DNA of 64,000 nucleotides, taken from a virus (Duplodnaviria; Caudoviricetes). The translations under genes were made by a program, and so were the position numbers. Of this stretch, positions 1,462 to 50,463 are shown piece by piece. Numbering within the stretch: the first letter of the stretch is position 1; each line of letters opens with the position of its first letter. The stretch lies in the IMG/VR virus record IMGVR_UViG_3300031867_000041, positions 6,544-70,543 of that record. The stretch is one strand, 5' to 3'. Under the pieces are notes generated by a model. It saw only the letters and a program-made list of their open reading frames with translations. It searched no databases and was not told where the DNA came from.

Positions 1462-2671
1462 TTTCCACCTCGCATTCATCAAAAATGTGCAAATAATCAT
1501 ATAGATATCTCCAAACATACCCTCCGGCCGTTTTCAAACGGTTTCTACAAACTGATATTATATCAGCTCTATTTACGCCGGTTGCCATGGATGCGTCTTT
1601 CGGTGATGAATATTGATTTATATAATTATTATCAATTGATAGTTGTACAACTGGTTTCACTCTAATATTTTTTAAAATATATGGATTATAATCTCCACAA
1701 CGATTCCATAAAAAACCACCTGCCGATTCTTTTGTATGATTACAACACTGATTTATAATAGAATCATCAACACCAGTATATCTTTTAGCCTAACCAACAG
1801 ACAAAAAAGTATCTAACAACCTTCCCGTCCCGTTTTCTCTCTGTTCTATAGCAAAAACACAATTATCATAAGAAAACATACTGTCATTTATATCATCTGT
1901 TTTATACTTCCAAATAAAACCAAAAGCCGTTTTTTGTCCTCCATTACAACATGATTTTATGTTCGCCATAATGGTTTGTGCAGAAAATGTTTCATTATGA
2001 CTTTTGAGTATATTGATAATATAGTCAGAAGCTACATTAAGATTTTTGAAAGTATTCAATATTTTCATTCCAATACCAAATTGGACAATTTCAGAATTAT
2101 CAAAACGCTTTAATAGTTCATTTATTTCGCTTTGTGTTAATGGGTTATCAGTACGCCTCCATACATAACCACCAGAAGTGATAGACATTGGTTTTTTGTT
2201 TATCACATCAACAATACCAGAACATCCGGTTTTTATTTTTGCTTCAGAAATTGTATTATATCTCTCCAATTCATTTCCACATAAATCGTATTGTATTACA
2301 GGAACTCTTAATACAGAACAACCATCATAGTCTCCACCATCGCTATAATTATAAACAGATTTTCCATATTGTTTTTTCGACTCAACTATAATCGCATGTT
2401 CTCTATCATTCAAAATATTCAACAATTCCTTATCTGTATAACAACTATATTTTTCCAATTGTTCAATAGAAAAATTATCAACACCATACTTTTTCATAGC
2501 TTTGTATAAACCATATTTACTATATCTATCCATCTTGCTATCTTTAACATGATCAGCAAATCTTTTTTCAATAGTCTGTCTTGTTTGACCTATATAGAAA
2601 TGATTGTTGACATTGTTTGTTATTTTATAAATATATCCTTCATACATACCAGTTTCTTTATTATAAGCCAT
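1454..2671 (-). CDS. Free-standing GIY-YIG homing endonuclease with NUMOD1-like repeats (405 aa, one in-frame TAG)
   Basis: N-terminal GYIYKITN...YIGQT motif and repeated CxxxxxxxAxGxxW segments. ORFs 1790..2671 and 1454..1660 share a frame across TAG 1790-1792. Confidence 0.85.
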
Positions 2672-2996: not shown

Positions 2997-4508
2997 TTAT
3001 GTATCCGCTGTATCTCTAGTCCTGTCTCCAGAGTCTGTTAATTCATCGTCTGGAGTTTGTGGTCTTCCCGCTTTATCAGATTGAGTATACGAAGTAGACC
3101 ATGGAATAAACACATCACTAAGATGTAAAACAGATTCTTCTAAAAAGTTTAATGCTATTGTATCTTTTTCAGAAAAACCATTTAAAGTGTTATATGCCAG
3201 TTTTACTGGCAGACCTTTATCTCCAGCAGACATTAATTCTTCTTTATACTGTTCCTTAGTATATACAGTAACCGGAAAGAATTTAACCTTACATGGATCA
3301 CTAATAGTTAATTGTAATCTATGATTAACCCAACTTTGAATTTGGGGTAACAAAGAAGATATAGCGTACTCACTATTAGCAATACTTGCCATACGAAATG
3401 CAAATGTATTATTAATGGTTGCTCCGTTAAGCAGCTCGGCACCACCAGCAGTATTTAAAACAGTTTCAGTAGCTTTTGCAACTTTCGTAGTATCAGAAGC
3501 TGCATTATCTGGAAATGATATTTCGTTCAATTTTCCTGGAACAATCGCCGCCGACATATTCGGAGGGATAGCTTCGTCCACCATTTTATTAAAATAATCA
3601 ACTGCTAAATCAACATCAACGCGCCAGTCATCTGGGATATCTGTTCCGTCCAACGTTTCAAGCTCATACCAAATAAGCTTATATATTTCTTGCTCCGCTG
3701 CAACAGCTTGAATATCCTCTAGATCCAAAAGATTAATGATAGAATTAGACATTGGCATCAGAGGACCAATAATCGTTTCAATATCTTCACTACGATATTT
3801 ACAACATAAACTAAACTCTTCCGGCATTGGTTGCCATTTTTCTCTGGTAGATTCATAATCTCTGTATAATTGTTCAAATACTTCTGGAAAATACTCTATC
3901 AACTCTTGATGTCCACGCAAGTATGAACAATCAATGGCATAAGCAAACTCACCGGTCATATATTTACCCGTTATTCTTGCTGAATCAGCTGGCCATGGGA
4001 GAACAAAAACTCCATCGTCATCCTCAATCCAAACATTATAACTAACATCCTAAACAAAACATGTAAGTATAATTGGATAGAATTCCTATTGAAGTCTCAT
4101 TTTATCTAACTCATCAACAGTCTCCTAAAATGATTTCAATACTTTCTGTGGGTTATTTTCTTTTGTTAAATCATGATTCGGAATAACCGATCTACAATAC
4201 AAAACAAACATATTCGAGAAAAAAATACAAAGTCTAGCATATATCTACGATCTATAAAACAAATACCACGAAAGATTTCTTAATCTAGCCTCATTACCCA
4301 CAATATTTTGAAAATAACTACGCAATGTTTCTTTGTCAAAAACTCCAACATTACGAGTTGAATTTTTCGTAAAATCACGAAGTCTCTTAAAAGCTTCCTA
4401 CGATTCGGCAAATCTTTGTTTTAGAAAATCTTCATTGTATTTCTGAGCAAATTCCCTTCGCTCACTATTAGTTGGCGTCGCCTTAGACACCGTACTTTTA
4501 GTCGCCAA
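2997..4508 (-). CDS. Portal protein (YonE-like, 503 aa, five in-frame TAG)
   Basis: TTG start at 4508 after AAGGGGGTG. Frame is continuous with track ORF 2997..3959 when TAG is read as sense. Lies between terminase and protease. Confidence 0.8.
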
Positions 4509-4523
4509 TTGGCAACACCCCCT

Positions 4524-7500
4524 TTAAAACGAAGAAAACCGTCTGGCGGATCGTATTGTCAAACGGTTTACAAGATTATCATTATTTTGTTTCGGACGTT
4601 TAAGTTGGTCTTCACGCCTAGCCTACATTAAAGCGTAGCCAAGCATGCAGCAAACATAAGCACGGTCGTCATGCATTTTGTTCGCCTTTTCTGGGGTTAA
4701 TTCAAAAGAATCTTTGCCAGATTCTCTTTTTTTACGAATCATATTTACCAACTCTTCTTTGAGCGCATCTATATTAGCAAGCGCTATTTCGTCCCGCCAA
4801 TCTAATTTAATTGTTTTGGTTTTTACAGACTAAACCTTATTTAGTTCTTCTTTTAGTTTTTCTTCGAACTCCTTGCCAACAACTTTCTGTTTTTTTAATT
4901 TCTCTGTTATTTTATTTGTTTCTTCATCTAACAATTTCTAATCAATATCAAAAACAGTAAGATATCCTTTATGATCATAATTTGAAGTAAAACTAATTTT
5001 ATTCTAATTCATCATCTCAATCATTGCTTCATACATTATTGATTTAAACGCACTTGGGTTCATCATATGTAGTTTTCCTTGAATTGCATCTGGAAATCTC
5101 TTTACATATTCTTCTGAATAATCTTTATCAATAAGTCCTCTATGTTCTATTCCGGCTTTGTCAACCCAATTTTGCATAAGCATATCAGCAATTATTGGTC
5201 CACCTCCACCGGACCCAGCATCACAATAAATACCAAGTATATTATCATAATTATCAGTACCGCCATCATAGTCAAGAATCATTTGTCTTAGATATTCAAC
5301 CTAATCTGGGGTCTGCATTGGAGACTTTATCTTTTTGCCAACGTCAACAAGATTAACAAGATTTACTATACGCGCTTTCTTCTCGGTTTTTCCATCAGGA
5401 GTTGGAGAATCATAGCATTCACCAGCGAGAATGACCGAATTGTCGCGAAGTCTAGCCGGATCGTACAAAAGCCAAAATTTTTTATCACCAGTATCATTAC
5501 TATGAAGAGGTTTTCTTGTCTCCTCATTCCTTGTAATTACACCACGCTTAATAATAGCATCGGCGCCGGCTTCTGTTGTGAATTGACAATAATATTCACG
5601 CCTGGCTTTTTCTGGATTTGTCCTCATTTCAGACTCAACAGTTGAGCGAGAGAGAAGAGGTGTAATAACTTCTCCGTGAAGAGTTGGCTTAAATGCAAGT
5701 TCGCAATCAATATGAAGGACACAGTAATCTGGGTCTCCCATAATTTGACGCTTTGCGAAATCTCTATATAAAGCATAAAACTTTGTGTCTGTGCTAGAAG
5801 CAGAACTGATATAAAACTTTTGGTTTGGAATATTTGTAGCAAACGTTCTTTGACGTATTGGGTCAATCGACCTACCACTAGCATCCTTACCAGTCTTTAG
5901 GCTTTTGTTTACAATAGCAAAAGCAGAATAAACATTCATCATTTCTTCCGAAAGAAATCCAGATTCATCAAAAATAACGTTTCCTCTCATCAATCTGTTA
6001 TCTTAGAAGCTTTTTATCTTCTAATTCTTATGGTTATCCTTCCCATAAGTTCGGCATATCTTTTCACCTTCATCATTATATGGTCAGGTGGCGCTGACTC
6101 GTGGAGAGATTATATTCTATACAATAGTTTCACTCTCTATGCTCTGCCTGTGACTATGCTTTTAATCATAGCCTTCCAGTCGGGTTGGCATTCCAGCGTT
6201 CCCGTTTTCTTCAGCGCTTTAGTATTATAATCCACTTATTTCTAAGCGGCGAGGCGTTGAGGAATATATAAGTTTCACCTCTTTTTTTATCTATATTACT
6301 ATTCAGTGTCTACGTCATAGATCCATTATATACTTCGTAATTAAAGCCGTTTGACGAGTGGCTAAAGCCATCTCCGGCAGCATTCTTAATCTTTATCTCA
6401 TCTTTAAATATTTTTCCAGTAGAACCAGAAAATGTATCAATATTATCATTCGCGATCCGCTCCAGCGTTGTAAATGTCTATTCTGCCTGCGATCCAGAAC
6501 CAGATGCTATGTATGTCCAATAATTACAAAAACACATATCCTTCATCATAGTTTCCAAGTCAATGACCGTGCTATTATGTGTTACAGTATTTTTCTTCCC
6601 ACACAAAAACAGTTTTTCTTCACTATCTACTGAAATACATTTAGTTTTTACCGAATCAACTTTAACTATATTTACAATTTGCTTCCTTCGCTGTTTAGCG
6701 GGTAGATAATCTTTTAATCTATCAAGCTTTCTTGGTAACTTGAAACATGGCAGTTCTTTGCTAGGAGTAAATTTAAACCTATGCGCCTTAAATGTTTTGT
6801 CTCCACACTTTCGGTCGTATACTCCACATGTAAACTTAATCCCAAGGGATACCAATAACTTATAAAACCCATCACATATTTTTTCATGACAAACACTTTG
6901 AGTAAACTCTGCATATCCATCTTTAGAAATAGTACCATCTGTATCCATCAATCCACATAATAAATCTAATCTCTGTGACACGGAGCCATATAAGTACTCA
7001 TCTGGAATATGCTTATTCTCATATAAATTATTGGATTTTAACAACGTCACTAAGGGGATGTCATCATATCTATGTAATATTATTCGCTTATTATTCTTAG
7101 CATCATTAATAATTGATTTGATTTTATATCCGGTTTGTTCTATCGCTTTTATAATGTCATCCAAATCGGAATTGTGACATGTAATATAGCCCCCAGCAGA
7201 ACATCCATCTCCCAACCATAACCCTAATATATATGGATTTATATCATATTCTTTTTGAGGATGCATAAGTGGCAAACTCATTGGAACTGAATATCTAACA
7301 GCATGATAGTCTTTATCCCACTTATCACTGTAAGTTTTTCTATTTGGAATTAAATATGACGAAAATAACTCGCTTGTAGTTAACTCTTTTAATTCCTTCT
7401 TTTTTGAATAAACATCATAAACAGACCATATATGATCAGCATCGGCTATAATTTTCTCCTAATCAGAAAATGTAATCTCATAGCAATCATGATTAGTAAA

Positions 7501-7914
7501 AATAGGTGAAGTATTTATAACCTTCACTGGAACGCCATAATTATCAAATACATAGTCCCCAATTTGTATGTCTTCCATTGTTTTATCACCATCAGGTGTT
7601 GGAATTATTGTATCTAAGCTCAAAGCTTTACCCCATCCACGAGTTGCGACTATTAAAACATTTGGGCAATTCCAAGACCTCTAAACAGCCAAAGCCTAAG
7701 AATCAAGCAATTCTATATTAAACCAAAAATCAATACCTTTAACCGGATTGCACTAAAAGTATTTTTGCATTTCTGCAATAGCAATTAATGATTCTATTTT
7801 TCTTGAAGACATTGGATAATTTATAGGCTTGACATATATACCATAGTCCTAATAAAAATCTTTGTCATACTATAAATCAAAATCTACTTTATTCGGTGTC
7901 CATATCTGACTCAT
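4524..7914 (-). CDS. terL: Terminase large subunit (join 7914-6277, 5990-4524), with intein, group I intron and multiple in-frame TAG
   Basis: Walker A TRGWGK|ST split by the intein; Walker B VIFDES; nuclease motifs CDAGSGGGG and HDDRAY. The only in-frame stops before TAA 4524-4526 are TAG. Confidence 0.9.
5991..6276 (-). mobile_element. Group I intron (286 nt, no ORF) in terL
   Basis: 5' exon ends in U (AAA AGA GGT) and the intron ends in G (...ACAGATTG). Removal restores NIDKKRG|MRGNVIFDES in frame. Core motifs GCAGAGCATA and AAGATATGCC form a P7-like pair. Confidence 0.8.
6574..7626 (-). mobile_element. Intein (351 aa, Ala1, class 3 signature) with LAGLIDADG homing endonuclease, in the terL Walker A
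   Basis: Starts ALSLDTIIPTPDG and ends TVTHN|S. Block B ADADHIW, block F TKCISV; LAGLIDADG motifs YILGLWLGDG and LLCGLMDTDG. Confidence 0.9.
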
Positions 7915-9241
7915 CGTACACCTCCTCATCTTCATCGCTTGAGAATGGGGAATATAATTCCTTCAGATTCTATAAATCAAAAGATATGTCTAAACCTTGT
8001 TCTTCTATAAAATCTTTAAGATCAAGATTTTCTCTCAGTAACAATCTATTGATTTCTTTAAACGAATCTCTTTCTTTTCTTAGTTCCTAATTATCCACTC
8101 TCATGGTTGCAACTATATCAGACCATTCTGATTCATCCAAAGCAAGCTGTTTCATAATAGAAGCGTCGCTTATTTCTTGAACCTATTGCATACCTTTGCA
8201 TGTAGCAATATCAAAACCATTTACTTGCCCACATCGTAAATTCAAATCTTTTATTTTCTAAATTTTACCAGTCCAAGTATTCTCGCCTTTAATCGAGTTT
8301 TTGCTATTTTTAAGGGATATACAACTTTCTTTCGCAAGATTGTTAACGCTGCCAAGAATCTATGCTTTCATCTACTACAACGATTTGATAGTAGCAATGT
8401 TTTTTTCTGCGTTTCTAAAGTCTTGAGATAATTGTGCGACCATATCATCAATATTACTGGCTTGTAAAAATCCTCGCACAATACTAATTATAGAAGCTGT
8501 TCGCATCATATCATCGTTTCCTTCTTCTGACGAATCAAGAAAACCGATTAACTGCGAATATAAGAAAGGCTGATCAGATAATTTTTCTTTATCAAATGGC
8601 AAGTAGCCCAACAAACGTAACGTGTCATTTTTATTTTTTTCAAATTGTTCAATTATTTCCTAGTCTTTTGGAAGAGCATTCTCCGCCATATCCTGGAGCG
8701 ACAAAGCGCCCCCAGTATAATTATCAGAATTTCTGTAAGTCATAGTATAGTAATTAACCATCTATACATTTTTTATATATGCGGTATATACATTATTCTT
8801 TGTTTTGCCAGTAGCACCATTTGCAGCTTCCAACAAAGAAGCATCCCATATGGTTTCTAACATTGGCTTGTCAAGAAAATACATTGCGTCATCAACCGTT
8901 TGTTTAGTCGGTTGCTGTTTCTCTCCATTTACAAATGGCAAAGCTATATCCTCTGCACACTATTTACATCCATCAGTAATACCGGAGACTTGACCAGGTG
9001 CAGTCGATACGTAGAATTTATCTTTTGTTTTAACATGGCCACAATGTTGGCACGTATAAAACTTACTTCCAACACCCATAGCCTCTAGAGCTTTCACCTA
9101 GTTAGCCGGAGTCAATGTATCAAATATAGCGCAGAGCTATTCAATAGTTTTATCAATCTCTTTTAGGTTAGTAGTCTTACCTGCCTCCTTTGGTGAAAGC
9201 GGTTTCTTCTAGCCCTTTCTTACAATCTTGGTAGCAGCCAA
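7889..9241 (-). CDS. Conserved phage protein upstream of terL (YonG-like, possible terminase small subunit), 450 aa, many TAG including tandem TAG TAG
   Basis: TTG start after AAGGAGGT. CxxC pairs (CQHC, CK*C). Frame includes track ORF 8375..8614. Its TAA stop overlaps the terL start. Confidence 0.75.
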
Positions 9242-9273
9242 AACCTTTACCTCCTTTTAATCATATTTATATA

Positions 9274-9337
9274 AGCTGACGAGAAGAATCGAACTCACAA
9301 CCTAAATCAGTTGCGCTACCAACTGCGCCACATCAGC
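9274..9337 (-). pseudogene. tRNA-like gene lacking the anticodon loop and 3' anticodon strand (Thr-like body)
   Basis: GCTGATG..GTCAGC acceptor stem, GCGC-AGTTGGTA-GCGC D arm and TTCGATT T loop are intact. Only ACTGATTT remains of the anticodon arm. Confidence 0.65.
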
Positions 9338-9342
9338 AAAAA

Positions 9343-9413
9343 TAGAATATGTACGAGTCGAACGTCTCTTCTTCGTCCCAAGCGAAGTGTGCTACCGTTA
9401 CACCACATACTCT
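9343..9413 (-). tRNA. tRNA-Pro(UGG)
   Basis: Anticodon arm CTTCG-CTTGGGA-CGAAG, D loop with GG, T loop TTCGACT, paired acceptor stem. Confidence 0.8.
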
Positions 9414-9542
9414 AAAAATAAAGAACCAATGCAGGCATCAGCTCCTCTAAAAACCTCAACGGTTTTTGTTCCAAATCCTACCAACGGGAATCGAACCCGA
9501 AGTAGAAGAGTGCAATACCCTTCTACGCACCAACAGAGACTA

Positions 9543-9653
9543 TTATCTAATTGCGATTACAACCCAGAGCATTAACGACATAAAAGCCGTACTGCCAAGA
9601 ATGGCAATAACCTCTTGGGCTACATCTTTGGTGGTTTCTTTGAGAAAATCCAT
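9543..9653 (-). CDS. Small membrane peptide (36 aa)
   Basis: GGAGGTGA RBS; MDFLKETTKDVAQEVIAILGSTAFMSLMLWVVIAIR with a hydrophobic C-terminus. Confidence 0.55.
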   Translation of the reverse strand: MDFLKETTKDVAQEVIAILGSTAFMSLMLWVVIAIR

Positions 9654-9736
9654 GTCAATCACCTCCTATATAATAAACAGCGTATAACCATTAACTTAGC
9701 TGTGTCATGCTTTTGCACAAGTTTTATGGGCATCAA

Positions 9737-9961
9737 TTATCTTAAAACATCATTTATGATGTCTGCTGTTTTACATAATTCCTCTCTGGAAGTTATATCA
9801 AATCCAACATCTTTTATAAGCGCATGAGCAAGATGTAAACAAAAATGTTGAAGAAATTCGTCCTGCTCATCTGTTGTTTCTTCAGCGGAAGTATTAATTA
9901 CATTCATTACTTCATTATATTTATCTATACATTCTCTTGTGTTTTTGTAAAAATCTTTCAT
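9737..9961 (-). CDS. Hypothetical protein (74 aa)
   Basis: Track ORF with AAAGGA RBS, same orientation as the operon. Confidence 0.6.
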   Translation of the reverse strand: MKDFYKNTRECIDKYNEVMNVINTSAEETTDEQDEFLQHFCLHLAHALIKDVGFDITSREELCKTADIINDVLR

Positions 9962-9979
9962 AATATATATCCTTTTAAC

Positions 9980-10295
9980 CTCCCCGACTGGGACTCGAAC
10001 CCAGACATACCTGCTTCAAAGGCATATAACGGTTTTCCTACTACTCCATGTCACCATAGCCGACTTTCGTCGTTGTAGTCTGGACTATTTCTTCACCATA
10101 TGACATAATCACTTAGGTGTCCCCTATATAGTCTCTGTACATTTACGAAATAATCAATTTCGATTTAGCTCCTCGTTGTCTCAATATTATATTGAGAGTT
10201 TCGCGAATTAGGGGGAATTCACAATGAGACTTTCGTTCCCATGTGTCCAAATTAAGGCTGAGAGACCGGCGCGATACCAATTTCGCCATCGGGGA
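9980..10295 (-). tRNA. Intron-containing tRNA, predicted mature anticodon CUA (amber suppressor), long variable arm
   Basis: Acceptor TCCCCGA/TCGGGGA with G73; D arm GCG-AAATTGGTAT-CGC; T arm CTGGG-TTCGAGT-CCCAG. Joining exons at U|...G gives the 7-nt loop CU-CUA-AA. Confidence 0.8.
10037..10260 (-). mobile_element. Group I intron (224 nt) between anticodon positions 35 and 36
   Basis: P7 motifs CAGAGACTA and AAATAGTCC, P9 with CGAC-GAAA-GTCG tetraloop, IGS TTTGGACAC, terminal G. Confidence 0.85.
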
Positions 10296-10329
10296 TTAAT
10301 AAAGGCGTAGCCGAAGCCACGCCAATAAA

Positions 10330-10809
10330 TCAATCTTTCTTATCTGTTGTAAACATCACGCCATCTTCTTCACCAATTACAGCACGAGCAACATCTTCCA
10401 TTAGTGTAGAAACAAGACCATGCGGATCATGCAGATTGTCGTTCCAGAACTGGACGACTTCTGGCTTGAATACAACATAATTAATCGGGTTCACCATAAT
10501 TCCCTCAATGGTGGTTGCATAAGAAAATGCCGGATTGCCCTCAAAGGCCCGACGAATCATATCAACCTTTTTGGGTTCAGTGTTTGCCGGGATTACCTCA
10601 ATAAACACAGAAACATTTCCAAAATCTTTTTGCACCGGAAGAATTTCATCAAGAGCAGCAGCTTTAATTTCATTTTCTACATACAGCTTAATGTGAAGTT
10701 CATCCTCATCAAATGCTACCTTAATATCAGGATCCGCACCAAACAGTGCCTCGACCTGTCTATAGTATGTAATCCACGGTGGAGCTAACTTTACTTCTTT
10801 ATTTTCCAT
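10330..10809 (-). CDS. Conserved hypothetical phage protein (159 aa)
   Basis: Track ORF with GAGGT RBS. Confidence 0.75.
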   Translation of the reverse strand: MENKEVKLAPPWITYYRQVEALFGADPDIKVAFDEDELHIKLYVENEIKAAALDEILPVQKDFGNVSVFIEVIPANTEPKKVDMIRRAFEGNPAFSYATTIEGIMVNPINYVVFKPEVVQFWNDNLHDPHGLVSTLMEDVARAVIGEEDGVMFTTDKKD

Positions 10810-16990: not shown

Positions 16991-19678
16991 CTATGCATTT
17001 TTTATAAAGCAATTAAGGAATTTATCTTTATTTGCTTGGTATAGCAAGTTGAGCATCTTACGAGTATATTTAGAAGAATCTTTGTATATATAATCATAAT
17101 TAGTATGACCTTCAAGTCCCAGACTTGTTTCTAATAGCCTATATATAGTTAGCTGACTTGTTTTTAGTTTTCTGAGTTCTTGCAGAACCTTTTCAGTTTT
17201 TTCTACAAACGGCAACATATAATCATCATCACTTTCATCATACGAAGCCATAAACTTTTTTACAAACAAATCATAGTCTTCAACTATCTTGCGTATATTA
17301 CTCATCTGGCGAGAATTTGCCATCTTACCTTCAGGTCTATCTATTAGATATTTATATGTATCAACACAATTTCGTTTATTTACACCTTGAATTTTATCAA
17401 GGCATTCTTGCAGCCAATTCATTGGACAAACCAAAGACTCATCAATTCTTTGCTTAACCTTTTGTTTTTCTTTTTTGACTTCTTCATACGGACGCTCTCT
17501 GCCATTTTTTGTGACTGAATATTTATGCGTATATTTAATGAACTTAGGATAGTCCTTATCACGATTCATACATTTTTGGGATCTAATGCGCAAGATATCC
17601 TCTCCGGCGTCCACGGAAAAAATTTTCTTGCACCCATCGATGGCCACCTGGGCAAGTACCGCGAGGATAACAGTATTATGATATAACTGCCAATATTCAG
17701 AATCATATTCACGATTTGCAACTTTCGTCCACATATAACTCTGAGCCAACTGAGCAGAATCACTGCTACCGCCTATAGCTTTCTGCGCTCCTTGCATATT
17801 CGAATCCATTCGCGCATATTCAGCCATTGTGTTATCATACGCGACACCGCTTTCTGGAATTTCATTAACAACGGTTGGGAAATCTCTGTATGCAATTCTG
17901 GCAGCTTCTACCATTTGCGGTTGATTCGTAACAAAGTTAAAATCAGAATCAAAATCCTCGCCGTTCATACGACACTGGACATCAGTATGAATACAATTCA
18001 CTGCCATAATATTGTTGCTGAATTTAAAATACTTATCCATTAAAGGATGCAAAACATTTTTAAAGTATCCAAGATTGTTTGCCGAATTATGCGGATTACG
18101 AATCCCACACAAATATTCGCCATCAGAAAACCTTGTAGTATATACTTGAATTACTCCATCATCTGGTTGCAACGTAGGATCAGAATTCCAATCTTCGCCA
18201 ACGGTATAGAGTAGAAGAGCATACGGATTTCCGCAAACAGTCAAATTGTCTCCAGATACTGTGATTTTACCCTTTCGCAATTTTGCAACATAATTGTTTA
18301 TGATTTTACTTTTATCTATTCTCCACATCCGGCTGTTTTCGAAATCATGATTCCAAGCATATAAGTCGGCAAGCATTTCGTAGTGATTAACCAGAGTAGC
18401 ATTTTTGCGCAGAAATTTTTCAAACTCATTATTATCACGCTTTAACAATTCGACATAATCTACACTTGTCTGAGCTATTTTATAAACATCCTCTTCAGTA
18501 CATGGAAGAGTATTAATCATTTGATACGACATCTGCTGAACATCGCCAAGCTTTGATGGATGATCCGTTTTCACAATACCCCAGTAACATCCGTCTTCTT
18601 TAACCTTGTCACACCAATAATTATAGGCAGACAACGGAGTGCCACCCATAAGGTCAATAAATTTCTTCCATTTAATAGCATCATCGGTAGTTATCATTTT
18701 TATATTTTTAGCCAAATGCTTTATACCGAACATATCCTCTATTTCGAAAGTGTTATAATCAATACCATTATCAGCGCAATAGTCTTTAAAGAATTTTTGA
18801 ATATATGTGCAAAATGCGCAAGCTTTAAAAAAATGATTGCGAAGCAATGCCATACCATTACACCATTCCGGTAAAGATGAGGGTTCAATTAAAGCCATAC
18901 CGTCCCAAAGAGTATTTTTGACATCAACTTCTTTGCGTTCAACGACACATTTCTTCTTTGTACATGGTTTAACCTCATAAGAATTTGTTTCATTATTAAA
19001 TACATTTGCATATGTATCATAGTCTTCGGCTTTAACAACATCTGCTATTGTGCGGAAAAAGCTATCTTGGTCCTTTAGAATTAAAACATCATCCACATCT
19101 ATATGCGTCATTCCTTCTATTGCGGAAGTAGTAAGTGGAGCATAAGCAGATAGTTCAACAATTTTTGCACCATGTTCCGGCATACGTTTGTCAATCCCCA
19201 TAGTCAGCCAATCTCTGGCTACATCATATAGTTCTTCTTTGATAAACATACATTGTCCAACTTTTGCTTTTGATGGATTCCGGTAAAGCATTTTATAATG
19301 AATTATTTCTTCGTGAACTTCGCCTGTCTTCTTATCTGTATAGCCATATGTAATCGGTACACCTTGTTCGTAGAACATGACACGAATTTCATCCTTTGAC
19401 ATTTCTTTAAATAAATGTTTTCTACTTCGGATCTTCTTTTCTAATTCGGCATATAGTTTTTCTTTTTCTTCATCACCAACAGCCTTTTTGCGCTCTGCCT
19501 TTATATGCTTCATTTCTTCTTCATAGCTACGAACTTTAAAACCAAAGTCCATACAAATCACATCTCTGGTAGATTCGTCTTTTTTATCTGTAGTCATTCC
19601 ATTTTCTTTCAAGAATCTTGTAAACAACGAATGATGGAGCATAGCGTCAGTATAATCATACCGATCACGAACTCCCAT
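16991..19678 (-). CDS. Single-subunit two-barrel phage RNA polymerase (YonO/RdRP-like)
   Basis: RNPH motif and catalytic NGEDFDSD (DxDxD); 895 aa; SPbeta-like synteny with HU. Confidence 0.85.
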   Translation of the reverse strand: MGVRDRYDYTDAMLHHSLFTRFLKENGMTTDKKDESTRDVICMDFGFKVRSYEEEMKHIKAERKKAVGDEEKEKLYAELEKKIRSRKHLFKEMSKDEIRVMFYEQGVPITYGYTDKKTGEVHEEIIHYKMLYRNPSKAKVGQCMFIKEELYDVARDWLTMGIDKRMPEHGAKIVELSAYAPLTTSAIEGMTHIDVDDVLILKDQDSFFRTIADVVKAEDYDTYANVFNNETNSYEVKPCTKKKCVVERKEVDVKNTLWDGMALIEPSSLPEWCNGMALLRNHFFKACAFCTYIQKFFKDYCADNGIDYNTFEIEDMFGIKHLAKNIKMITTDDAIKWKKFIDLMGGTPLSAYNYWCDKVKEDGCYWGIVKTDHPSKLGDVQQMSYQMINTLPCTEEDVYKIAQTSVDYVELLKRDNNEFEKFLRKNATLVNHYEMLADLYAWNHDFENSRMWRIDKSKIINNYVAKLRKGKITVSGDNLTVCGNPYALLLYTVGEDWNSDPTLQPDDGVIQVYTTRFSDGEYLCGIRNPHNSANNLGYFKNVLHPLMDKYFKFSNNIMAVNCIHTDVQCRMNGEDFDSDFNFVTNQPQMVEAARIAYRDFPTVVNEIPESGVAYDNTMAEYARMDSNMQGAQKAIGGSSDSAQLAQSYMWTKVANREYDSEYWQLYHNTVILAVLAQVAIDGCKKIFSVDAGEDILRIRSQKCMNRDKDYPKFIKYTHKYSVTKNGRERPYEEVKKEKQKVKQRIDESLVCPMNWLQECLDKIQGVNKRNCVDTYKYLIDRPEGKMANSRQMSNIRKIVEDYDLFVKKFMASYDESDDDYMLPFVEKTEKVLQELRKLKTSQLTIYRLLETSLGLEGHTNYDYIYKDSSKYTRKMLNLLYQANKDKFLNCFIKNA

Positions 19679-24053: not shown

Positions 24054-24111
24054 TGAGCCGTCTGGGAATGTGTGTTCCCACTGATGAGTTCCAAAAGGAC
24101 GAAACGGCTCA
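24054..24111 (+). ncRNA. Hammerhead ribozyme (type III topology)
   Basis: TGAGCCGTC cleavage triplet; stem I TGGGAA/TTCCCA; CTGATGA core; stem II GTTC/GGAC; GAAA; stem III closed by CGGCTCA. Confidence 0.9.
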
Positions 24112-50349: not shown

Positions 50350-50463
50350 CGGAACATAGCTCAATTGGTAGAGCACTCATGACAAACTATTGTTAACAGT
50401 GTCTTTGTTAACAGATAACCAATAGTGAAATGGGAAATGCACGTTCGAGTCGTGCTGTTCCAT
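50350..50463 (+). ncRNA. tRNA-like RNA with a 49-nt structured anticodon loop
   Basis: GCTC-AATTGGTA-GAGC D arm; CTCAT/ATGGG stem enclosing nested hairpins; GCACG-TTCGAGT-CGTGC T arm. Confidence 0.65.

Follow-up and report, generated by a model that had tools for sequence, protein, structure and literature searches.

The 64,000-nt stretch of viral DNA analysed here (the window) carries on its minus strand an amber suppressor tRNA gene, tRNA(CUA), that is split by a group I intron belonging to the classical clade of bacterial tRNA introns, and this intron is most likely a mobile, constitutively splicing passenger. Joining of the two exons between U35 and A36 gave a canonical 92-nt class II cloverleaf in ARAGORN, with the anticodon CUA and a long variable arm, the insertion thus falling at position 35/36 of the anticodon loop (CUCU|AAA). 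The initial annotation had described a tRNA body with anticodon CUA, interrupted at this very site by a 224-nt group I intron, and that description was borne out by the Rfam match, by the enumeration of legal joins and by homologues with and without the intron.

Exons and splice junction

Between the two strands of the anticodon stem (CCGGU at positions 27-31 and ACCGU at positions 39-43), a 7-nt loop can be formed in six ways. Only one of these joins, CUCU|AAA, leaves a U before the intron and a G as its last base, and the earlier claim that no other join with a 7-nt loop does so held when all loop positions were checked. The stem itself contains a C27-U43 mismatch. The gene was invisible to ARAGORN in its normal mode. 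In intron mode, the program returned the correct span (9980-10295) but misplaced the intron (anticodon 'agg'), and in L047 it fused adjacent tRNAs into false introns. A rule-based junction finder was used instead, a looser variant of which passed many spurious joins and was dropped.

The 3' boundary of the intron was placed with the aid of its relatives. Their introns end as GUAGU-A-N-G| (AAG, ACG or AUG; n=10), three bases past the P9 helix, and the window reads GUAGU-A-G-G|; the last G of the window intron is therefore 10037, and it is this homology of the 3' ends that settles which of the two final Gs is used. From the sequence comparisons, we infer that the window tRNA(CUA) is spliced and that its junction is CUCU|AAA.

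Architecture of the intron

The Rfam model RF00028 (Intron_gpI) matched positions 10058-10270(-) over its full length (model positions 1-253), scoring 56.0 bits, above the cut-off of 50; the E value for the window as a whole was 1.6e-11. The minimum free energy (MFE) fold of the intron recovered P3-P6, P8 and P9. P2 is capped by a GAAA-type loop, P3 is formed by UCCCC/GGGGA, P4 includes one G-A mismatch, P5 and P6 comprise 8 and 6 bp, respectively, and P8 is extended. Neither P7.1/P7.2 nor P5abc is present, as judged by eye from the Rfam alignment and the fold, and the IC3-like label rests on that judgement.

Within P1, the 5' exon and the guide sequence form the pairs U35-G13, C34-G14, U33-A15, U31-A17 and G30-C18, interrupted by a C-C mismatch at C32. 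The core of this helix (UCU/GGA, consisting of the U35-G wobble, C34-G and U33-A) is kept in all of the CUA members, including the 10 related CUA-tRNA introns. The initial annotation had the guide sequence pairing with both exons. The pairing with the 5' exon stands, whereas P10 (AAA with UUU) is possible in the window but is not conserved in the relatives, and it was dropped for that reason as evidence for the junction.

In an RNAalifold analysis of 11 sequences, 38 consensus pairs were obtained, of which 26 showed compensatory changes, including the tRNA anticodon stem that is formed across the intron. Compensatory changes were found in P2, P3, P4, P5 and P8; P7 and P9 are invariant and hence uninformative on covariation. 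With its Rfam score, the U-G wobble in P1, the terminal G and core helices that covary, the element has the features of a group I intron and is predicted to be self-splicing. A sensor RNA near the intron was sought, and no riboswitch family was detected in the window at the gathering score, nor in positions 5500-10400 at E values up to 0.1.

A second group I intron is found in the phage record, outside the window, at G000:C1:2413-2677 (-) (L001:1501-1765; 80.9 bits). It carries an insert between P7 and P3', which marks it as a different type from the tRNA intron.

Table 1. Coordinates of the split tRNA(CUA) gene, its intron and the neighbouring features (window positions)
Feature	Position	Strand	Basis or remark
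Split tRNA(CUA) gene, whole span	10295-9980	minus	cut by 224-nt group I intron
tRNA(CUA) 5' exon, 35 nt: acceptor UCCCCGA, 4-bp D stem, CCGGU (5' strand of anticodon stem), C32 U33 C34 U35	10261..10295	(-)	sequence; joined exons give a cloverleaf
Group I intron, 224 nt, no ORF, compact tRNA type (IC3-like, by eye), P1-P9, three-way P9 junction; begins CAGCC, ends GUAGUAGG	10037..10260	(-)	Rfam, MFE fold, alignment
Internal guide sequence GGACAC; P1 with exon GU(C)UCU, U35-G wobble at 5' splice site	10243..10248	(-)	Rfam alignment, P1 table of 11 family members
P7 5' strand GACUAU, part of invariant CAGAGACUAUAUAG core	10128..10133	(-)	invariant alignment columns
P7 3' strand AUAGUC, followed by clade motif CAGACUAC	10083..10088	(-)	invariant in 11-sequence alignment
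P9 domain: helix ACUAC/GUAGU closing two hairpins with GNRA loops (GAAA, GUGA), then A-G-G	10040..10079	(-)	fold; five P9 pairs all invariant in alignment
Terminal guanosine (omega G), third base past P9 helix	10037	(-)	homologous position in relatives
tRNA(CUA) 3' exon, 57 nt: A36 A37 A38, ACCG(U), long variable arm (8-bp stem, loop UUGAAGC), T arm CUGGG/CCCAG, acceptor UCGGGGA, discriminator G	9980..10036	(-)	sequence, ARAGORN cloverleaf, variable-arm fold
Terminator-like GC hairpin GGCGUGGC-UUCG-GCUACGCC	10304..10323	(-)	8 nt upstream of tRNA; same hairpin before tRNA in L005, L003
Upstream ORF, 159 aa, no TAG, synteny anchor	10330..10809	(-)	homologues in sister contigs
First large recoded gene downstream, 455-aa protein, 13 in-frame TAG including a tandem pair	7889..9256	(-)	homologue alignment
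Portal gene, 5 in-frame TAG	2997..4523	(-)	PHROG 2739, E 1.9e-77

TAG recoding and gene context

The record is a 70.5-kb linear viral contig, which is about 41% complete. No internal in-frame TAG was present in the genes upstream of the tRNA (in order of transcription) or in the plus-strand genes, while the genes downstream of tRNA(CUA) contained 13, 8, 5 and 5 such codons. Read-through of TAG joins the minus-strand ORFs into full genes for the 455-aa protein, the large terminase, the portal and a GIY-YIG endonuclease.

In the alignment of the 455-aa protein with 75 homologues, Q was the commonest residue at 10 of the 13 TAG sites and was invariant at two of them. Similarly, among 103 portal homologues, Q was commonest at four of the five sites, and at site 158 it was found in 102 of the 103 sequences. 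Over the two genes, Q thus predominated at 14 of 18 TAG sites, and on the strength of this predominance TAG is taken to mean Gln in the packaging and head genes of this phage.

The large terminase is encoded by two ORFs, 6211-7962 and 4524-6002 (-), the first of which carries a Hom_end/LAGLIDADG (intein-like) insert; no group I intron between these ORFs was detected by Rfam in positions 5500-8000 at E values up to 0.1. An 895-aa RNA polymerase-like gene upstream of the suppressor stops on TAG at 16991-16993 (-), and suppression of this codon would add 13 codons, to 16952.

No second CUA tRNA was found in the 70.5-kb record; a further suppressor may be located elsewhere in the genome, given the incompleteness of the record. 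Since the only CUA tRNA of the record is split, the decoding of TAG by this gene would, from its anatomy, depend on splicing. The initial annotation placed the gene inside a late operon, just upstream of the TAG-dense genes. Its position at the border between TAG-free and TAG-rich genes was confirmed, and co-transcription with the upstream genes is presumed, with a terminator-like hairpin standing between them and the tRNA. The accompanying suggestion of a temperate phage finds its only hint in a single tyrosine recombinase gene.

Several other RNA elements were observed in passing. A type III hammerhead ribozyme is located at 24055-24110 (+) of the window (Rfam RF00008, 51.3 bits, with the cut-off at 48.5). 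A 64-nt tRNA-like RNA at 9274-9337 (-), directly following tRNA-Pro, scored 36.7 bits with the Rfam tRNA model and has acceptor, D and T arms but lacks a normal anticodon arm. A 114-nt tRNA-like gene at 50350-50463 (+) scored 41.4 bits, and ARAGORN in intron mode assigned to it a 42-nt insert in the anticodon loop and the anticodon GUG; this insert does not belong to the group I introns. Among related contigs, L011 encodes a ROOL RNA upstream of the portal region (2019-2607 (+); RF03087, 307 bits), and the 161-kb contig L039 contains two closely spaced group I introns downstream of the portal (17096-17374 and 17499-17761 (+)).

Homologues with and without the intron

An intron-less tRNA(CUA) occupies the same slot in the sister contigs L005/L008, L003 and L004, where it directly follows the homologue of the 159-aa ORF. 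In L005/L008, this homologue is 99% identical to the window ORF and the portal is 98% identical; the DNA homology ends 2 nt before the tRNA and restarts 4 nt past it, and the tRNA body differs. The nearest intron, in L124, is 77% identical by blastn (71% over the tree alignment), and it splits a class II tRNA(CUA) that is homologous to the intron-less tRNAs of L003 and L005, which read GACUCUAAAUC across the site.

The Lak-B phages provide a parallel. In Lak-B1/3/6/9, tRNA(CUA) is split at the same site by an intron, first matched by blastn, whose core is 79% identical to that of the window intron; in Lak-B1, a class I tRNA is cut by a 245-nt intron, again at CUCU|AAA. A different, intron-less tRNA(CUA) is found in the same place in Lak-B2/4/5/7/8, and L181 holds the split counterpart of the intron-less Lak-B2 tRNA. 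Despite its homology, the Lak-B1 intron was not called by Rfam at E values up to 0.01 and was caught by blastn and the motif. Lak-B1 (L331, MK250020.1 around 291436) also carries a second intron of the clade, in a tRNA-Leu(UAA)-like gene, with an apparent further group I core just upstream.

Five metagenome contigs encode an intron-less class II tRNA(CUA) whose 21-nt anticodon arm is identical to that of the window, including C27-U43, which indicates that this arm works without an intron. A metagenome scan for the spliced junction returned no intron-less allele of the window tRNA itself, but only Ser-like class II tRNA(CUA) genes sharing this anticodon arm. When viral contigs were searched for exact copies of either exon or of the exon-intron border, there was no match. 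The intron-less tRNA(CUA) genes of the metagenome contigs L334-L338 fall into three sequence types and combine a serine-type D arm with a long variable arm and G73; they may be TAG-to-Ser suppressors.

In two further contigs (L108:773-1004 (+) and L166:8919-9151 (-)), a related intron that ends in A rather than G (GUAGUACA|AAC) interrupts tRNA(CUA) at the identical position. Either these introns have lost function or their 3' splice site is an unusual one.

With regard to the survey of related phages that had been proposed as a check, the same intron type splits tRNA(CUA) in relatives, and sister phages carry an intron-less version. As the same slot is filled by different tRNA bodies, both in the sister phages and in Lak-B, the whole tRNA(CUA), with or without its intron, seems from these comparisons to be swapped between phages as a cassette. 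Co-conversion of the exons during intron homing would produce such an exchange.

The intron clade and its tRNA hosts

The motif extending from P7 to P9 was found at no fewer than 119 viral and 120 bacterial loci, including that of Anabaena. With the rule-based junction finder, the host tRNA was resolved for 44 of the viral introns (anticodon UAA in 24, CUA in 10, GUU in 5, UUU in 2, and UAU, UGU and CAU in 1 each), a sample in which the share of CUA is biased, since it was drawn with a motif from suppressor introns. Among 60 resolved bacterial hosts, the anticodons were UAA (31), CAU (21), CUU (4), CCU (2), GGU (1) and UCU (1), and CUA was absent. The clade of the window intron also occurs in phage Leu, Asn, Ile, Thr and Lys tRNAs.

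The CUA-tRNA introns, including that of the window, represent seven distinct sequence types (at least six besides the window), among them that of Lak-B1/3/6/9. In a quick maximum-likelihood tree, they fell into two well-supported clades, each of which was nested among Leu(UAA) introns: the introns of the window and L124 clustered with 12 Leu(UAA) introns (98% SH-aLRT), and the seven other CUA introns grouped together (99%). By this nesting, suppressor tRNAs are judged to have acquired introns of the Leu(UAA) type on two or more occasions. The Leu target CUU|AAAA resembles the suppressor target CUCU|AAA, which would make jumps between them plausible.

Related introns in L207 (around 1934, +) and L125 carry an ORF for an HNH endonuclease, and the P9 region of the L207 intron nests a tRNA-like sequence.

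Charging and the variable arm

By textbook identity rules, the class II body, the 8-bp variable stem and G73 of the window tRNA(CUA) suggest a serine acceptor, while the TAG sites call for Gln. Under such rules, U1-A72 and G73 fit recognition by GlnRS, whereas the class II arm and C2-G71/C3-G70 do not, and this comparison serves as a lead only. In E. coli, class II tRNA-Tyr amber suppressors that carry such changes wrongly receive Gln.

The loop of the variable arm (9997-10020 (-)), UUGAAGC, is identical in the window and in L005 (6514-6605), although the stems differ. The corresponding loop is UCUGAUG in L003 (6511-6598), and its place in L124 is taken by a GNRA loop. The motifs U-UUG-A and U-CUG-A resemble the anticodon loop of glutamine tRNA and might attract GlnRS.

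A probable passenger intron and alternative explanations

In the mechanism that we favour, the primary transcript would decode nothing, and the ribozyme would have to act first. It would cut after U35, by means of the P1 U-G wobble and free guanosine, and the exons would then be joined after the last G of the intron, to give the loop CUCUAAA. The intron itself probably derives from a tRNA-Leu(UAA) intron, and we assume that it would splice constitutively. A passenger intron is favoured by the intron-less sisters, by the presence-absence polymorphism in Lak-B and by the occurrence of the clade in sense tRNAs.

The initial annotation had gone further and proposed a splicing-gated switch of the genetic code. 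According to that proposal, the intron is kept because slow or conditional splicing delays the suppressor, and hence the terminase, portal and head proteins, thereby adding an RNA lock on top of late transcription. The dependence on splicing is real, tRNA(CUA) lies exactly at the border between standard-code and recoded genes, and control by a ribozyme over the maturation of suppressor tRNAs has been proposed for a parallel case in the literature (PMC10879173). Among recoded phages, split tRNA(CUA) genes also recur in no fewer than seven sequence types, versus none of the 60 resolved bacterial hosts of the clade; however, bacteria hardly have suppressor tRNAs, so that their absence would be expected anyway, and the source of the motif biases the viral share. 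The regulatory part of the proposal, or any limitation of rate, is not supported: no sensor RNA accompanies the intron, which belongs to an ordinary Leu-type clade that occupies sense tRNAs as well, and the sister phages, in the same slot, and Lak-B2/4/5/7/8 manage without it. Late timing, moreover, is expected from the position of the gene in the late block. We thus consider a splicing-gated switch rather unlikely. It is likewise unlikely, in our estimate, that splicing proceeds slowly or conditionally within infected cells (with guanosine nucleotides, Mg2+ or pre-tRNA folding as the limiting factor, for example) and so times the readability of TAG, the repeated capture of Leu-type introns having been selected.

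Two other explanations concern the state of the gene and its product. The gene could be a decaying or silent copy, in which splicing has been lost or the tRNA stays uncharged, with TAG read by a suppressor in the missing ~59% of the genome. Such an account would suit a fragmentary record, the mismatches in P1 and the anticodon stem, and the defective-looking relatives ending in A (L108 and L166), but we hold it to be quite improbable: the window fits every invariant column of the 11 aligned sequences, its intron helices are intact, three further sequence types of intron-less tRNA(CUA) share the C27-U43 arm, and a suppressor is present in the syntenic slot of every close relative. It is scarcely credible that another join yields a sense tRNA, either with GGA (Ser), after U33, or with a Leu-like UAA and a shifted stem. 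The former, which the initial annotation had named as the outcome that would overturn it, demands an intron ending in A, and the latter a 3-bp stem, even though the exon repeat UCUCU permits a second P1 register at U33, the class II body and G73 are as in tRNA-Ser, and several alternative joins pass ARAGORN. The relatives fix the last G three bases past P9 and the 5' site after CUCU, and CUCUAAA is what the intron-less homologues read.

Comparison with known systems

One well-known regulated group I splicing gate is reportedly the c-di-GMP-II riboswitch-controlled intron of Clostridioides difficile (described by Lee et al. in 2010). That intron needs an adjacent aptamer, and none was detected beside the window intron.

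Recoding of late genes has been described in phages, and the window conforms to what is seen in phages that recode TAG to Gln (Borges et al., doi 10.1101/2021.08.26.457843; Peters et al., PMC9523058) in having a phage-encoded tRNA(CUA), TAG-enriched late structural genes, early genes in the standard code and a suppressor that adjoins the recoded block. Unlike the suppressors of those phages, the window gene is split by a ribozyme and hidden from standard tRNA finders, and its product is a class II tRNA with a long variable arm. Phage suppressor tRNAs are thought to switch on stop-codon recoding, yet a TAG suppressor was identified for no more than about 40% of the TAG-recoded genomes (Borges et al., doi 10.1101/2021.08.26.457843). 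As tRNAs split by group I introns escape the standard finders, they account for part of this gap. No publication on a phage suppressor tRNA with a group I intron turned up in full-text literature searches.

The Lak megaphages offer a concrete case. Devoto et al. 2019 (PMC6784885) describe 'enigmatic' Lak tRNA introns, which are short, unclassed and located in Tyr, Phe, Gly and Thr tRNAs, and their table lists Sup-CTA for only some of the Lak B genomes. By their coordinates, the Sup-CTA genomes include the intron-less B2, B4 and B5, and the split CUA gene is not evidently listed in the part of the listing covered; the Sup-CTA cell of B1/3/6/9 in that table is empty, yet the split gene is present. 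Identity of the split gene with the intron-containing 'Tyr(GTA)' tRNA of Devoto et al. was ruled out, as the supplement shows a different, short intron.

A close known relative is the tRNA-Leu(UAA) intron of cyanobacteria, plastids and many bacteria (IC3; 'Leu.3Ug' of Williams 2020, doi 10.1101/2020.01.27.920355), which belongs to the same clade by core motif and tree. Both introns lie in the anticodon loop, are compact (about 200-250 nt) and lack an ORF, and both have the P1 U-G wobble, the terminal G and a 3' exon beginning with AAA. They differ in that the host here is a stop-codon suppressor rather than a sense tRNA, that the window site (35/36, after loop base 4) lies one base 3' of the Leu site (34/35, CUU|AAAA), and that the guide sequence is changed to GGA(C/G). 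An old clade of tRNA introns has thus gained a new host and a new insertion site, CUCU|AAA. In the survey of bacterial genomes by Williams (2020, doi 10.1101/2020.01.27.920355), 21 classes of bacterial tRNA introns are distinguished; as in Arg.5Ug, fMet.2Ug, Ile2.5Ug and 17 further classes, the mature anticodon loop of the window tRNA would arise only after self-splicing. A CUA host was found for none of the 60 bacterial introns sampled here with a resolved host.

With the window intron, a ribozyme reaction becomes part of the route to a changed genetic code. A parallel is found in the theta (HDV-like) ribozymes, which lie beside phage suppressor tRNAs and for which regulatory and 'always on' readings have both been discussed (Kienbeck et al. 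2024, PMC10879173). In both systems, a self-acting ribozyme is required for the maturation of a suppressor tRNA in recoded gut phages. However, cleavage by theta ribozymes falls outside the tRNA, in its 3' trailer, whereas the window intron lies inside the anticodon, such that ligation of the exons is required as well.
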